This document shows positions 49,726 through 63,255 of a stretch of DNA of 64,000 nt, piece by piece. The DNA comes from an uncultured Sphingopyxis sp. (GTDB lineage: Bacteria > Pseudomonadota > Alphaproteobacteria > Sphingomonadales > Sphingomonadaceae), in assembly GCA_964542975.1 (NCBI GenBank), contig CAZIVW010000006.1, forward strand, positions 22,937 to 86,936. Reading direction: 5' to 3'. The notes beneath the pieces were generated by a model, which worked only from the letters and a program-made list of their open reading frames with translations, was not told where the DNA came from and ran no database searches. Each line of letters opens with the position of its first letter. The first letter of the stretch is position 1. Both the position numbers and the translations under genes were made by a program.

Positions 49726-49761
49726 AAAACGGGGCGTAACAACATTTGTTGTTACGCCCCG
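49726..49761 (-). terminator. Intrinsic terminator downstream of the tRNA 3' fragment
   Basis: 14-bp stem cggggcgtaacaac/gttgttacgccccg followed by TTTT on the minus strand. Confidence 0.8.
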
Positions 49762-49766
49762 CGGGG

Positions 49767-49790
49767 TGGTGGACAGGGCTGGATTCGAAC
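49767..49790 (-). other. Prophage att site: 3' 24 nt of a tRNA (probably tRNA-Tyr)
   Basis: Minus strand GTTCGAATCCAGCCCTGTCCACCA is a T-loop, acceptor strand and CCA; no 5' tRNA half upstream. Confidence 0.85.
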
Positions 49791-49862: not shown

Positions 49863-50318
49863 ATGCTTTGGCTAACCTTTTTGGGCCGGTTGGGTGCCAT
49901 ATCCGATCAAGATTTTGGGGCATCGGGTGGTGGACCGATTAGGCTGGTTCAGCCGTCCCTATCCTTGGAGCATCCGACCATTCTATTAACCCTCGCTCTC
50001 TGCATTTCGTCCGTCCATGACGGTGACACTTTCCGCACCTGTGACGGGGTCAAGGTTCGCCTTGTGGCAGCGTCGGGACCGATGGACGCGCCCGAAGTGG
50101 CGGGCAGCCCTCGTTGTCGTCGCGAAGCTTGTGACGTGCGGGCCGGTGAAGCTGCTCGCGATCGGTTACGTGAAATCTTGGACCAACCGGCCGAGATGAT
50201 ATGTGCTGGGCAGGATAGATATCGCCGCACCCTGTGCCGCGTCACCGCGGGCGGCGCTGATGTGGGCGATATGATGGTGCAGGAAGGGCATGCCGTCATC
50301 CGCAACGATTGGCGGTAA
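49863..50318 (+). CDS. Prophage thermonuclease (SNase-like); true start probably about 100 nt downstream
   Basis: VHDGDTF, DAPE, DRYRRTLC, MVQEGHA. Confidence 0.8.
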   Translation: MLWLTFLGRLGAISDQDFGASGGGPIRLVQPSLSLEHPTILLTLALCISSVHDGDTFRTCDGVKVRLVAASGPMDAPEVAGSPRCRREACDVRAGEAARDRLREILDQPAEMICAGQDRYRRTLCRVTAGGADVGDMMVQEGHAVIRNDWR

Positions 50319-50331
50319 TAAGTTGCTTGTC

Positions 50332-50369
50332 AAAAAAACCCAACTTCGCGATGGCGCGAAGCTGGGTTC
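50332..50369 (-). terminator. Intrinsic terminator of the DUF4760-like gene
   Basis: aacccagcttcgcg-ccat-cgcgaagttgggtt followed by a T run on the minus strand. Confidence 0.75.
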
Positions 50370-50382
50370 CTAGAAATTTAAC

Positions 50383-51027
50383 TTAGGCGTCTGAGCCGCT
50401 TAGTGGAGAAAAAAGACTACCATCAACGGCAAATTTCGCTGTCTTTTTCTGCAGGTCTGGGTGCCATGTACACGTTAACCGCTCAAAATATTCGTAATAA
50501 GTTGAGTCAGATTCTTGGGTTTTATCAATATGGTGTCGAAGCCCCAAGTATATACGTTTAAACACTAATATCTGCGCCTGCTTAATCATGTCATGATTTA
50601 CGGCGCCATACACGATTGCAACGGCCGCCTGCTCGTACACGCTGAGCAATTGCTCGATTTCTCGTTCGGGCATAGCCGGACGATTACCGCAATCTGTCTT
50701 CTGATATTCATTGTAATCGTTTATATATGGATAGACGACGGCCTTCAGTGTGCTCACATCGCTTGAGGACAAACGTTCAAGAAGTGACAGAGCGTTTGTC
50801 TTGCGGACCATCAGAATGGTCATTCGACCAGACCAAATCCACCCGATGGTAGTTAAAACGATCGCCAATAGCGCTCCCAAGAATATTATTTCATCTTTGA
50901 ACCCCCCTCGGTTCATAATCGCCAGCGAAAAGATAGCGATTAAAATACAGCCCCCTGTAAACCAAAGAGCCCCGTAAAAACGGGGCTCAAGTTGGTTAAT
51001 TGCGAATTTTTTTATCGCCGCTATCAA
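50383..51027 (-). CDS. DUF4760-like protein with two N-terminal TMs (AT-rich moron)
   Basis: Pattern LLSVYEQAAVAIVYG...HIDKTQ...YYEYFERLTCTW resembles DUF4760. Confidence 0.7.
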   Translation of the reverse strand: MIAAIKKFAINQLEPRFYGALWFTGGCILIAIFSLAIMNRGGFKDEIIFLGALLAIVLTTIGWIWSGRMTILMVRKTNALSLLERLSSSDVSTLKAVVYPYINDYNEYQKTDCGNRPAMPEREIEQLLSVYEQAAVAIVYGAVNHDMIKQAQILVFKRIYLGLRHHIDKTQESDSTYYEYFERLTCTWHPDLQKKTAKFAVDGSLFSPLSGSDA

Positions 51028-51033
51028 GGGCAG

Positions 51034-51060
51034 TTACCAGGAACCAGATACTTTTGTCAT
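51034..51060 (-). CDS. Putative 8-aa micro-peptide MTKVSGSW
   Basis: GAGGAGACCATA-ATG ACA AAA GTA TCT GGT TCC TGG TAA; in frame with the downstream TTG. Confidence 0.5.
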   Translation of the reverse strand: MTKVSGSW

Positions 51061-51436
51061 TATGGTCTCCTCACCGTTATATCCCGTCTGCCTTTCGGGC
51101 ATCAGGCCGTTTGTCAGTGTTTTATATATATCTATGAATATGTGAATGTCACCTTGATAAACAAGGTTCCCACCAAGGGTGGTCGTGATTAAGCCTCATA
51201 TCATTATCGCATTTCAGGTACTTAATATGAAATCATCACTATTTCAGCGTGAAGAAATGGCGCCCAAATAAGTGAATTCCAGCTCAAATTAGTCGTTTTC
51301 AACCCTGTTTGCAGAATATCAGGGATGCCAATTTCGAGTATGATTCGACGGTCAAAATCAGCCATATTTTCAGACTGACGGCCTCTGGAGCAGAGCACCC
51401 AGCCGATAACGCCCGCCCTGTTCAGGCAAGATCACA

Positions 51437-58234: not shown

Positions 58235-58579
58235 TCAGTCGCTGCTTTCCTCTTGTGGGATTTCCGCTGGGTTGGCGGTGTTCGGGGCAGTGTTGGCGGC
58301 GGCATCAATCAGCGCCGCAACGTCGGGGTTGTCGCGCAGAAATGCCGCCATTTTTTCGGTGGCGCTGGGTTCTGCCTTGGGCTTGGGACGATTGACCAAA
58401 TCCCAGCGGCTGCCCGTCCAGCGCGGCCATTTGTTATCTGGCCATGTGTCGGGCGGCGGGGTCAGCGTGCATCCGGCCGGAACATGCCACACATCGGGTT
58501 CCAGCGGGCTTTCGTCCGCTTCGGTGGTGCCGACGAATAATCCGGCATGATCGCATTGATAGGCTGGCTTGGATGCCAT
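58235..58579 (-). CDS. Tail fibre assembly-like protein
   Basis: AYQCD..G.FVG...ADESPLEP..W.VPAGC...PP; follows the tail fibre. Confidence 0.75.
   Translation of the reverse strand: MASKPAYQCDHAGLFVGTTEADESPLEPDVWHVPAGCTLTPPPDTWPDNKWPRWTGSRWDLVNRPKPKAEPSATEKMAAFLRDNPDVAALIDAAANTAPNTANPAEIPQEESSD
58246..58266 (-). promoter_or_regulatory. 21-bp late-promoter-like element, copy upstream of sheath
   Basis: CGGAAATCCCACAAGAGGAAA-N17-CATGGT; identical to 59999-60019. Confidence 0.65.
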
Positions 58580-59998: not shown

Positions 59999-60019
59999 TT
60001 TCCTCTTGTGGGATTTCCG
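59999..60019 (-). promoter_or_regulatory. 21-bp late-promoter-like element, copy upstream of tail fibre
   Basis: CGGAAATCCCACAAGAGGAAA-N17-CATTAT. Confidence 0.65.
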
Positions 60020-60098
60020 GTTACCTGACACCTCATGCCAACCGGTTCAAATTAAATTAACAGTTTATAAATATGAAACGGATGATTAACTGCAGAGT

Positions 60099-61058
60099 AT
60101 GAACAGAGAAATCGATAGCTATATTGGCATTGGCAAATTTCCTTGGGCTTTACTAATATCAGTATTATTATACATAATTGTTATTTTATATATAAAAGAC
60201 ATAAGTTTTGCAAAAGGGAATGGTCAAACCTTGGCAGGCCACGCCACCATGTTCCTTTTTCTGATTCTATTGTCATTTCTTTGCAGGCGCTTTGCGACAG
60301 TGTCTTTATTGCTGGAGGCGACTGCCTACCTTGTCGCGGCCTGGCCATTGCTTCGAATTTTCAACCATCTCATTATGATTAATGACGTTCCGTTGGCGGA
60401 TGCTACGCTGGCGTCTTGGGATGCGTTATTCGGCTTTGATTGGCTATCCTACGCTCACTTTATTGACCGACAGCCCATACTACTGACAGCCTTTCGCTTA
60501 ACCTACTGGGGCTTGAGCGCCTACACTTCCGCATTTTTTATTCTAATTTTCGCCTTCAACCTGTCCAATCGGGCCGTTGTCAATGAGTTCATCACTCTGT
60601 TCGCTGTCACCGCGATGGCTTGCTCGATCATTGGCAGCTTTTTCCCAGCCGAGGCTGCCGCGATATATTACGCGCCTGACCTGTCTGAGTTTAGGACGTT
60701 TAATCCCACAGGTGGCAGCTATCATATCGAGCATTTGCGTGCCCTGCGATCAGGCTTGCCGATTATCATAGACACTAACTCACTTCCGGGACTGACAACA
60801 TTTCCTTCATTTCATACAGCCATGGGCATGGTGTGTATGTATTGCACAAGGCACAATTCCGTTATCTTTCCCACGTCGATACTCGTTAATCTCATTATGA
60901 TTTTCTCCACACCTGTTGCGGGGGCTCACTATTTAATCGACGTGATCGCTGGGGCGTTGGTGGCACTCGTGGCGATCGGTTGGCATAGAGGGGTGGCGGC
61001 AAGAATGCAGCACCCCAAAATGCCCCTGCAGCGAGCTAAGGCAACACCTCTAATGTAG
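60099..61058 (+). CDS. PAP2-superfamily membrane enzyme (Aur1/IPC synthase-like, PAP2_3 type), prophage moron
   Basis: Multiple TMs; DATLASWDALFG, FFPA, TFPSFH, HYLIDVIAG; AT-rich and opposite strand to the tail genes. Confidence 0.85.
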   Translation: MNREIDSYIGIGKFPWALLISVLLYIIVILYIKDISFAKGNGQTLAGHATMFLFLILLSFLCRRFATVSLLLEATAYLVAAWPLLRIFNHLIMINDVPLADATLASWDALFGFDWLSYAHFIDRQPILLTAFRLTYWGLSAYTSAFFILIFAFNLSNRAVVNEFITLFAVTAMACSIIGSFFPAEAAAIYYAPDLSEFRTFNPTGGSYHIEHLRALRSGLPIIIDTNSLPGLTTFPSFHTAMGMVCMYCTRHNSVIFPTSILVNLIMIFSTPVAGAHYLIDVIAGALVALVAIGWHRGVAARMQHPKMPLQRAKATPLM

Positions 61059-62088
61059 CACTGAACTGTGCAACTATTGCGTCATCAACCGTCCCATCAC
61101 TACGCGCGAATTGGTGTCCGACGCGGAACTTAACGGTTCCCATGGGCACACTGGCGTTGTGCCGCTGGCGCGTTGGCGACTGTAGCCATGGCCGAGGCGT
61201 AGCCGCGTCTTCTACGGCGCCCAGCACTACATCGCCTGCACCCAAAAATTGCACATAGGACCGGCTCTTGTCAGAGCTGTTATTTCGCCAATTGATTAAG
61301 TTTAAACGCGCTACCGCATTACTAGACGCGACTAACGCCAACGCAGCCGGAGTTAGAACGATGTCCCTGTGATAAGCTAGGTTCGCTTGGGAACCTCCCC
61401 AAGCCGACGGTACAGCAAATATCCCAGAAAATTCACTGGTTGTCGAAGTGGTTGTGCTTCCCGTGATGTTGCCCGCCGTGACAGTCCACCCAAGTTCGGC
61501 GGGAATATTCCAAGCAAAGATCGGGACGCATTGTCCCGCTGACGGAGAAATGGTAACGGATACATTGCGAAAATAAAAATCGGCATTAAGCCCATCTAAC
61601 TGACGGCACGATATTGCGACTGTTATTGATCTAGTCCCCAGCGGTGCTGGTACGGCTAGCGTGTATGAGGCCTTGGCTCCGGCTGACTTGAGATCATCCG
61701 ACCAGATTATCGCTAAAACATCGCCGCTCCCATCAACACCTGAATGACACCGAAGAGTTGCGATCCCGTAATCGACCACAGTCTTTGTAGTGGTCCGATA
61801 ATCAAATGAGAAATTTATCGTCCCCTGCCCCATCATGGACTGATACTCAGTCGGAACATTCACGATTTGACGTTGACGCAGCGTCTTTAATGCAAGCGAT
61901 CCCGTATTCCCAAAGAAGAAATTGTGCTGACCGGCATCAACATCACCCACGCGTGTCGTGAACGCGGTGCCCAGTTCTGCATCCCAACCCACAATGCCGT
62001 CATCACCGTTGGGGTTCACGATCAGGTTTGGCGAAGTGGGCGCACCGCCCGCTCGGCGCATTTGCTGCGCCAAAATACCCGCCATCAT
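61036..62088 (-). CDS. Putative receptor-binding/adhesin protein with carbohydrate-binding-like domains
   Basis: NLIVNPNGDDGIVGW motif, beta-rich, apparently two similar halves; start overlaps the upstream gene. Confidence 0.55.
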   Translation of the reverse strand: MMAGILAQQMRRAGGAPTSPNLIVNPNGDDGIVGWDAELGTAFTTRVGDVDAGQHNFFFGNTGSLALKTLRQRQIVNVPTEYQSMMGQGTINFSFDYRTTTKTVVDYGIATLRCHSGVDGSGDVLAIIWSDDLKSAGAKASYTLAVPAPLGTRSITVAISCRQLDGLNADFYFRNVSVTISPSAGQCVPIFAWNIPAELGWTVTAGNITGSTTTSTTSEFSGIFAVPSAWGGSQANLAYHRDIVLTPAALALVASSNAVARLNLINWRNNSSDKSRSYVQFLGAGDVVLGAVEDAATPRPWLQSPTRQRHNASVPMGTVKFRVGHQFARSDGTVDDAIVAQFSATLEVLP

Positions 62089-62654
62089 TCCGCCACCGTC
62101 TGGCCGAGCAGATCAAAAACATCTGCTGCCACCCGTTTGAGCGTGACCGTCATGCCTGATGCCATCGTAAGCGTGCCACCATGTGGCGGATTGACCGTCA
62201 CACCGCTTGCTGGTGCGAACTCCACATCGCCGGTTGCGCGGAAATGCCATTCGCCATTGCTCGGTAAAGCCAACGTAGCGTTTGGTGCGACTGTAATGGA
62301 CACAGCACCGCCCCCGCCGATGCGGATGTATGCGCCTACATCGGCAGCGGCCAAAGCATAATTCTCTGTCTTGTTTACCACTTGCGCGAAACTGGTCGCA
62401 GCCCCCTCGCTGAACGCGATCCGCTGAATATATTCCCGCCCGCCGCCGACGATTTTCAAATCATATCGGCCATCGGGCGCGGCGAATTGCACATGGCCGC
62501 GATCATTGCCGTTGAACGGATTGGTCAGCGCCGCGCCGTCTTTGTCCACCAATCCCGTGGCCAGTGTTTCGCTGTTCGGCAAATAAACAGTGGCCGTGGG
62601 GTTGGCCACGGCGGCGCCATTGGCGGCGGTGATCCAGAAATTCTTTAATTCCAT
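62085..62654 (-). CDS. Putative short accessory tail fibre/adaptor
   Basis: N-terminus MELKNF...ATVYLP...LTNPF...QFAAPDGRYDL resembles tailspike anchors; C-terminal NYALAAADVG...TLKRVAADVF module. Confidence 0.55.
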   Translation of the reverse strand: MELKNFWITAANGAAVANPTATVYLPNSETLATGLVDKDGAALTNPFNGNDRGHVQFAAPDGRYDLKIVGGGREYIQRIAFSEGAATSFAQVVNKTENYALAAADVGAYIRIGGGGAVSITVAPNATLALPSNGEWHFRATGDVEFAPASGVTVNPPHGGTLTMASGMTVTLKRVAADVFDLLGQTVAE

Positions 62655-62682: not shown

Positions 62683-63255
62683 TCACAAAATGATGCGATC
62701 TTCGTGGATCGCCATTTGCGGCCATTGGTAATTACTCACTTCGATGATGCTGCCAACCACCGATGCCCCCGCCATGAACAAGGCGGTGTTGCTGGTGACG
62801 GTGATTTCCAAACCCGACAAATGCGACCGCAGGTTTTTGGTGCGGCCCAACACTTCGAACAGGCCGATTTGCGCCGCTTCGGTGATGCCGCTTTGGCCCA
62901 CGCCCATGAACATTTTGAATGTATAAGGCGCGCCTATGGGGGTTTGGCGGTGCCATTCTTGGATTTGCACATCGATATTCAGCGCGGCCAACGCATCGCG
63001 CACCGCGCCGATCGTGCCTTTCATTCGGTGCACGGTCACGCTGGATTTGATAAAGGCGCGCTGTTGCTCATCGCTCCACCCGCTGACCCATTCATCCACG
63101 CTGAATGCCGATGCCAGCCACGGCAGCCATTTTTCGGGGCAGATGTCTTCGTTCCAAATATCGCGCAGCGGCGTGGGCAGCGCGTCGATGCGCAGCGACA
63201 GTTCCGCTAACGCCCGTTCTTGCGGCGTCGCATTGGGGGGCAGCAGGTCAGACAC
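62683..63255 (-). CDS. Phage tail protein I (P2 gpI-like)
   Basis: LLPPNAT, CP..WLPWLA..FSVDEW, HRMKGT, QEW. Confidence 0.93.
   Translation of the reverse strand: MSDLLPPNATPQERALAELSLRIDALPTPLRDIWNEDICPEKWLPWLASAFSVDEWVSGWSDEQQRAFIKSSVTVHRMKGTIGAVRDALAALNIDVQIQEWHRQTPIGAPYTFKMFMGVGQSGITEAAQIGLFEVLGRTKNLRSHLSGLEITVTSNTALFMAGASVVGSIIEVSNYQWPQMAIHEDRIIL

Follow-up and report, generated by a model that had tools for sequence, protein, structure and literature searches.

The gtrABC genes of P22, epsilon34 and SfII/SfV/SfX, presented as serotype-converting prophage genes in PMC2629481, which also describes a moron that varies next to the tailspike gene, are among the closest described counterparts of the locus reported here, which lies in a 64,000-nucleotide stretch (hereafter the window) of an uncultured Sphingopyxis sp. 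(contig CAZIVW010000006.1, positions 22,937 to 86,936). An intact P2-like prophage of 40.9 kb extends into this window; its open reading frames (ORFs) include those for integrase, terminase, head and tail, and a cassette of three genes separates its tail genes gpI and gpH. As in the gtrABC prophages, a temperate phage combines a membrane enzyme that would modify the envelope, and that is probably encoded outside the late transcript, with a variable, predicted receptor-binding protein. In contrast to gtrABC, there is a single predicted Aur1-type phosphotransferase, encoded within the tail operon by a gene that overlaps that of the adhesin, and no family match to GtrA, GtrB, GtrC or any other glycosyltransferase was obtained for the three slot genes. 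Since no LpxC was found in the host genome (99.99% complete), a lipid A-borne O-antigen is excluded as the target.

The second point of comparison is Aur1, in which the triad H255/H294/D298 is reported to be essential and to act in two steps via a phospho-histidine (PMC13133130), together with its bacterial homologue BT_1522, whose deletion is reported to remove phosphatidylinositol (PI)-dihydroceramide (PMC9246714). We propose that the cassette works like seroconversion but not like gtrABC, and like Aur1 but not as an inositol phosphorylceramide (IPC) synthase: it would be a case of lysogenic surface conversion, coupling an adaptor and a predicted two-domain lectin to an Aur1-like enzyme that would mask the adhesin's receptor. 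We give this reading a probability of about 0.45, somewhat below even odds.

The cassette and its Aur1-like enzyme

The features of the locus, in window coordinates, are as follows.

60099..61058 (+): PAP2_3 (Aur1/Ipt1-type) integral membrane enzyme, 319 amino acids (aa); PF14378 E 5.9e-28; triad H239, H277, D281
61036..62088 (-): predicted adhesin, 350 aa; a short MxxGIxA-type peptide at the N-terminus is followed by two beta-sandwich domains (like carbohydrate-binding modules, CBM, or galactose-binding domains)
62085..62654 (-): adaptor, 189 aa; N-terminal part (about 1-85) tailspike-anchor-like, C-terminal part (about 85-189) in PHROG virion/minor tail families
62683..63255 (-): gpI (baseplate/tail protein I of P2 type), flanking the slot on the right; Tail_P2_I E 1.9e-47, TIGR01634
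58598..59953 (-): gpH, a tail-collar fibre of 451 aa, flanking the slot on the left; PF12571 (Phage_tail_fib) E 1.3e-46, PF07484 (Collar)
60019..60098 (+): AT-rich region upstream of the enzyme gene, with one weak sigma-70-like candidate at 60057-60086
60000..60018 (-): 19-bp motif GGAAATCCCACAAGAGGAA, specific to this prophage; it lies at the left slot edge, 65 nt ahead of the start of gpH
58247..58265 (-): second copy of the 19-bp motif in the window, before the sheath gene
49755..49790 (+): 36-bp attachment-site repeat; its other copy, at C6:113601, lies over the 3' part of a tRNA-Tyr gene, and the two copies bound the 40.9-kb prophage

The preliminary description of this DNA had placed three genes between gpI and gpH, and ORFs were found at these places, with both flanks recognised by their Pfam families. 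The 23-bp overlap that it gave for the 350-aa and 319-aa genes, tail to tail, is likewise correct, and the 189-aa and 350-aa genes, which it called coupled, overlap by 4 bp. Its label of "second fibre" for the 189-aa protein was dropped in favour of adaptor, which is the better name, and its description of the PAP2 gene as AT-rich holds relative to the surroundings but not in absolute terms (its GC is 0.47, where the genome has 0.57 and gpH 0.61). GC at third codon positions is 0.53 in the enzyme and adhesin genes and 0.56 in the C-terminal part (last third) of the adaptor gene, compared with 0.68-0.77 in the flanks; because this low value is common to all three, the whole block 60019-62316, and not the enzyme gene alone, would be a foreign piece.

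The enzyme scored 98.4 bits against PF14378 (PAP2_3; cut-off 27) and 24 against PF01569, below the cut-off of 27.2, and the motifs read earlier from its sequence are present, PSFH beginning at residue 236 and HYLID at 277. Residues H239, H277 and D281 are invariant in 37/37 aligned relatives and correspond to H255, H294 and D298 of Aur1. The structural model (predicted local distance difference test, pLDDT, 92.5) has eight predicted membrane helices, and its best structural match, over nearly the whole chain, is Aur1 (Foldseek E 3.3e-4, template-modelling score 0.49). Its alignment to Aur1 reached Z 16.1 over 258 residues, the root-mean-square deviation (rmsd) being 4.9, against Z 12.5 over 162 residues for LpxE. 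The phage enzyme thus shares with Aur1 (9IVC, 9VJ4) and BT_1522 the PF14378 family, the eight predicted helices, a predicted extracytoplasmic site and the His...His-x3-Asp triad, with a spacing of 38 residues in the enzyme versus 39; it differs in its identity to Aur1 of only 13-17%, in having no Kei1-like partner that we could see, in being phage-borne, and in its setting, a host with neither an inositol synthase nor an inositol gene cluster. The density of lysine plus arginine was 0.12-0.24 in alternate loops and 0.00-0.07 in the loops that hold the motifs, a positive-inside pattern that would place the active site on the periplasmic face. The possibility of a virion-borne PAP2 protein was rejected in view of the eight predicted helices and of a gene that faces away from the late transcript.

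Canonical PAP2 phosphatases are defined by the motifs C1 (KxxxxxxRP), C2 (PSGH) and C3 (SRxxxxxHxxxD). Among 120 relatives of the phage enzyme, C1 was present in 1/120, PSGH in 0/120 and the C3 arginine in 0/120. PgpB, LpxE and LpxT share the core helical fold and the catalytic histidines with the phage enzyme, which in contrast to them has no C1 motif, no PSGH and no C3 arginine, and carries extra N-terminal helices. Given the fold match to Aur1 and the missing C1, PSGH and C3 arginine, the enzyme is more likely a headgroup transferase than a phosphatase, as far as sequence and model can tell. Of the earlier label "Aur1/IPC-synthase-like", the first half is supported by fold and motifs, which are Aur1-like and not those of a canonical phosphatase, while a strict IPC synthase is disfavoured because the host lacks inositol-1-phosphate synthase (PF01658 in 0/1, that is, in a host genome 99.99% complete, with the control matching in 6/14; inositol may also be taken up). 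The headgroup donor would therefore probably be phosphatidylglycerol (PG), phosphatidylethanolamine (PE) or phosphatidylcholine (PC) rather than PI.

Adaptor, predicted adhesin and their probable linkage to the enzyme

The 350-aa protein had been called a beta-rich adhesin, and its model (pLDDT 67.8, two beta-sandwiches, linker unresolved) agrees, with predicted lectin-like folds of the kind found in tailspikes. Domain 1 aligned with tailspike 4 of phage CBA120 (Z 15.4, rmsd 2.3, 142 residues), with the Klebsiella Kp7 tail fibre gp52 (Z 14.7) and with CBM61, CBM16 and CBM4 (Z 13-14), and the beta-sandwich lectin-like fold is shared with both phage proteins (5W6H and 7XYC, respectively); for domain 2, the best row covering it had Z 11.7. 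The sequence gave a tandem CBM22 match (E 1e-8) and also matched viral minor tail/CBM proteins, although no Pfam or PHROG family was assigned, and the same two-domain unit ends long tail proteins (P0163, together with Phage-tail_3). A carbohydrate-binding beta-sandwich fold, and with it the name adhesin, is thus a well-founded prediction, and the gene position and the partner pattern described below would be in keeping with a virion part that binds a host glycan. Compared with known phage CBM proteins, this adhesin is a stand-alone two-domain protein, presumably borne on a P2-type myovirus tailspike anchor and with a convergent membrane enzyme beside it. Relatives were absent from viral and metagenome contigs under close alignment and from phage records, and wider alignment yielded only one locus (L209).

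The adaptor matched the N-termini of annotated tailspike/SGNH proteins with residues 1-85 and the terminal domain of many phage tail proteins with residues from about 85 to 189. Behind its C-terminal domain, 25/28 loci (L181-L208; 21/24 after merging four duplicate pairs) have a partner gene that overlaps it, and the partner proteins begin with the same MxxGIxA-type peptide as the 350-aa protein. Eighteen partner proteins were scanned, of which nine carried LamG or F5/8 lectin-type domains, three other domains and six none. This points to a widespread two-gene tail module, an adaptor domain plus an overlapping gene with varied lectin domains. The pairs of Erythrobacter phage ZS04, annotated as minor tail and virion proteins, and of Sphingobium phage Lacusarx show the same order as the cassette, the adaptor domain being followed by a virion gene that overlaps it by 4 bp. 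In another locus of this kind, a Sulfotransfer_4 gene (L187:8344-8922, minus strand) is convergent on a BNR-repeat partner gene with an 8-bp overlap, a layout like that of the window but with another type of modifying enzyme, and a parallel that counts in favour of the proposed coupling. For the adaptor domain we found no family name, and its atlas matches are unnamed phage clusters; the sequence search for solved structures returned no match for adaptor or enzyme, and PADLOC no family for any of the three slot proteins. A predicted complex of three adaptor C-terminal domains with adhesin residues 1-185 scored 0.03, against a mark of 0.32, which speaks neither for nor against the pairing.

Evidence that ties the enzyme to the adhesin comes from the closest relative of the enzyme among 5.8 billion proteins, P0002, which is 50% identical, has the same length of 319 aa and keeps the triad. 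P0002, P0123 (54% to the adhesin) and P0130 (56% to the C-terminal part of the adaptor) each occur on three contigs, the longest of 28,032 nt, and by this agreement in contig count and size the three almost certainly share one contig, on which they would be adjacent. Since the N-terminal anchor of P0130 is unrelated to that of the window's adaptor, the three genes appear to have passed from one type of phage to another. The enzyme was seen with no other partner in 109 loci. PF14378 was found in 0/50 and 0/4 other related phage records, 20 of them at least 90% complete (one further record of the second set, chosen for holding a PAP2_3, is not counted in either figure), and no phage-borne Aur1-like enzyme was found among 50,697 annotated phage records. 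As to the suggested co-variation of enzyme and adhesin alleles, the closest enzyme relative apparently travels with the adhesin's relative; this concerns two elements, of which the second is known in this indirect way.

Exchange and predicted expression of the slot

The idea of a swappable module was substantiated for the slot itself, since relatives match the flanks and then diverge at both slot edges. In contigs X5 (study P2) and X6-X8 (study P3) the flanks are matched, with 5 mismatched letters in 719 for X5 and about 10% for X6-X8, and unlike sequence begins at 60018/60019 and at 62311/62317. Three different sequences thus lie beyond the left edge, those of the window, of X5 and of X6-X8. 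These contigs cover the slot edges and none joins across the slot middle, so that PAP2 or adhesin alleles below 80% nucleotide identity would escape detection, and runs X1-X4, from one study, were left out of the comparison as possible source data. Allelic versions from this adaptor's family occur in the X5-X8 phages (P0127, 87%; P0128, 82%) and were assigned to these contigs by size and by hand reading of loose ends. A further slot allele is P0129, on a 28,357-nt contig, which joins an adaptor-type N-terminal anchor (92% over 85 aa) to an unrelated C-terminal domain.

The best 14 full-length gpH relatives from IMG/VR include 10 with gpI; nine of these 10 carry a co-directional insert of 1.9-5.4 kb between gpI and gpH, and one carries none. 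Because the insert genes are of tailspike or fibre type (pectate-lyase, GDSL and one set resembling a diversity-generating retroelement), this is best regarded as the ordinary receptor-binding slot of the phage clade, and the N-terminal anchor of the adaptor opens three of the inserts, behind gpI (L093, L094 and L106). In two P2-like relatives, reverse transcriptases lie just upstream of gpH (L103:2911-3963 and L104:5120-6310) and probably belong to diversity-generating retroelements. A motif-plus-flank pattern search of viral contigs gave no match, and 400 genomes of the family held no other gpH match and one other adaptor match, with no second prophage of the same type.

The 19-bp motif occurs in six perfect copies, all on the minus strand and all in this prophage; outside it, the 2.9-Mb genome has no copy at up to 3 mismatches. 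The copies, four of which lie beyond the window (C6:87473, 92638, 95422 and 99487, minus strand), precede genes for lysis, head, baseplate and sheath as well as gpH, and near-identical motifs stand at three equivalent tail positions in L094 and at two in L093. A late promoter or activator site is what this distribution suggests; the 14-base core of the motif had no match in the open literature. The copy before gpH ends exactly at the left edge of the slot, and with this putative late motif of its own gpH, together with the genes behind it, would be independent of transcription through the slot. The enzyme gene, facing the opposite way to the late transcript, would have to be served by a separate promoter, in the manner of a moron.

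Near the other end of the prophage, a contig of the exchange comparison (X7) has 373 other letters in place of 50243-51436, which makes that stretch a second variable slot. A low-GC DUF4760 gene (50383-51027, minus strand) is found at this left end.

Proposed receptor masking, its rivals and its meaning

In the mechanism that we propose for receptor masking, the plus-strand enzyme gene would likely be expressed in the lysogen and yield an inner-membrane transferase, which would move a phospho-headgroup from a common phospholipid to a surface-bound lipid, most likely ceramide, in two steps via phospho-H277 on the periplasmic side of the inner membrane. The capped lipid would be bound less well by the cassette's own lectin, protecting the lysogen against reinfection and limiting re-adsorption, the latter being reported as a benefit to the prophage (PMC13622650). 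Upon induction, adaptor and adhesin would be made from a late transcript starting before gpW, the adaptor would anchor the lectin on the baseplate, and gpH's own late motif would keep up the expression of fibre and sheath despite the convergent gene in the slot.

The host offers a suitable setting in that it has ceramide-pathway genes and no LpxC. Its sphingolipid locus (L174, C1:137.8-148.9 kb) holds a GNAT-type ceramide-synthase candidate, a desaturase, an LptF/G-like pair, DUF2141, a DAGK-family kinase, Spt and an acyl carrier protein, whose roles we take to be those of their Caulobacter counterparts. The host's own PAP2_3 protein (L175, C12:80494-81567), encoded between sirtuin-like and ribosomal protein genes, is only 29% alike to the phage enzyme, whose subfamily is found in 4/400 family genomes and 0/6 congeners; the prophage thus adds something that the host lacks. 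The phage enzyme (P0001) and P0002 are sister proteins (support 100/100) within a 19-row clade (99/98) that includes 15 sphingomonad rows, three of them assigned from tree position and ceramide-synthase score, one Rhodovulum metagenome-assembled genome (MAG) and one unlabelled protein, and the sister clade consists of Roseobacter, Rhizobium and Roseibium relatives. These values come from a careful 34-row tree built without the long-branch rows L004, L006 and L007; an earlier 95-row tree was a quick search only. Moreover, sphingolipid status is reported to alter phage adsorption in Caulobacter (PMC6445935). The narrower version, in which the enzyme specifically caps a ceramide-based outer-membrane lipid with a phospho-headgroup and has been moved between unrelated phages as a unit with the lectin whose receptor it would hide, is one that we hold to be rather unlikely.

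Several observations weigh against receptor masking, and some of them concern the acceptor. A ceramide-synthase match was found in 22/50 genomes with enzyme relatives of 30-45% (one of them weak) and was missing in 28/50, the sample covering the genomes of 50 of 80 loci, many of them MAGs of unknown completeness; five of the 28 have only paralog-level Spt matches of 33-35%. It follows that the wider subfamily can use acceptors other than ceramide, and one row without a ceramide-synthase match (L025) falls inside the sphingomonad clade itself. No sphingolipid genes stand beside the chromosomal relatives in the 33 loci inspected, and these relatives are mostly alone among housekeeping genes, neighbours that say little about the substrate. 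Besides, polysaccharides are the usual ligands of CBM-type domains, which may be unable to reach a short ceramide headgroup. As to the linkage, it consists of two elements, the second through inferred adjacency, and the 23-bp overlap alone could hold enzyme and adhesin together without selection; L209, with an adhesin relative at 30%, has no PAP2_3, in a record 24% complete. Expression adds a further point: the enzyme promoter candidate is weak (9/12 match to a sigma-70-like consensus, in a 3-kb scan that gave 8 sites against 3.0 +/- 1.7 expected). L094 has the motif before gpH with no convergent gene in its slot, so that the motif leaves room for a moron without being proof of one.

The rival that fares best, which we regard as possible but doubtful, holds the enzyme to be an active moron of lysogenic conversion whose remodelling of membrane lipids is of general use to the lysogen (charge, peptide resistance, unrelated phages) and which hitchhikes with the adhesin by overlap in a tolerant slot. 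With its edge at gpH's own motif, the slot would accept whatever gene lies convergent there, and loss of inositol lipids is reported to alter antimicrobial-peptide resistance in Bacteroides (PMC9246714). The genomic contexts of relatives also fit it, since besides those alone on chromosomes there are PAP2_3 relatives in several copies within a Tad pilus cluster (L029:1067-7783) and others with an Acyl_transf_3 gene upstream in two sphingomonad-like genomes (L024:5697-7753 and L026:5655-7741), both hinting at envelope decoration in general. Likewise, in another P2-type prophage a distant PAP2_3 (29%) is convergent with a UDP-glycosyltransferase between replication and portal genes (L006:3553-5824), at a distance from the tail genes, a further point against masking. 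Mere hitchhiking is harder to reconcile with an enzyme and an adhesin that have diverged by about 50% and are yet apparently on one contig, although the slot is swapped between phages that are 90-99% identical, and with the failure to find any other enzyme partner in the 109 loci.

An improbable alternative is that the enzyme is a hydrolase, a lipid phosphatase or phospholipase C acting for example on ceramide-1-phosphate from a host kinase, or that it creates the receptor rather than hiding it. The fold is indeed shared by LpxE, PgpB and G6PC1 (Z 10-12.5), which are reported to share the triad as well (PMC13133130), the host locus includes the DAGK-family kinase, and databases name the relatives "membrane-associated phospholipid phosphatase"; against this stand the monoester-binding C1 motif and the C3 arginine, missing in essentially all 120 relatives, and an Aur1 match that extends over N-terminal helices that phosphatases lack. 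A silent passenger, recently captured and with no role for phage or host, would accord with the relatively low GC, the rarity and the weak promoter match, but is very improbable given a full-length frame with intact triad and a 319-aa sister that keeps the triad at 50% identity, which needs long purifying selection.

In the open literature, with subscription journals and supplements outside the search, we found no description of PAP2 in prophage lysogenic conversion or of prophage-encoded sphingolipid modification, and no paper describing this PAP2_3 subfamily in Alphaproteobacteria; phage receptors and exclusion in sphingomonads free of lipopolysaccharide (LPS) are barely described in the literature reached. 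Even if the enzyme has nothing to do with the adhesin, a phage-borne Aur1-like lipid transferase was met with neither among the annotated phage records nor in the literature searched. If receptor masking is correct, the locus would provide a rare PAP2_3 subfamily of Alphaproteobacteria with its first assigned function and would extend seroconversion from O-antigen to sphingolipids, and the lectin, as a matched probe, and the enzyme, as a one-gene switch, would offer a way of identifying the receptor in LPS-free sphingomonads.

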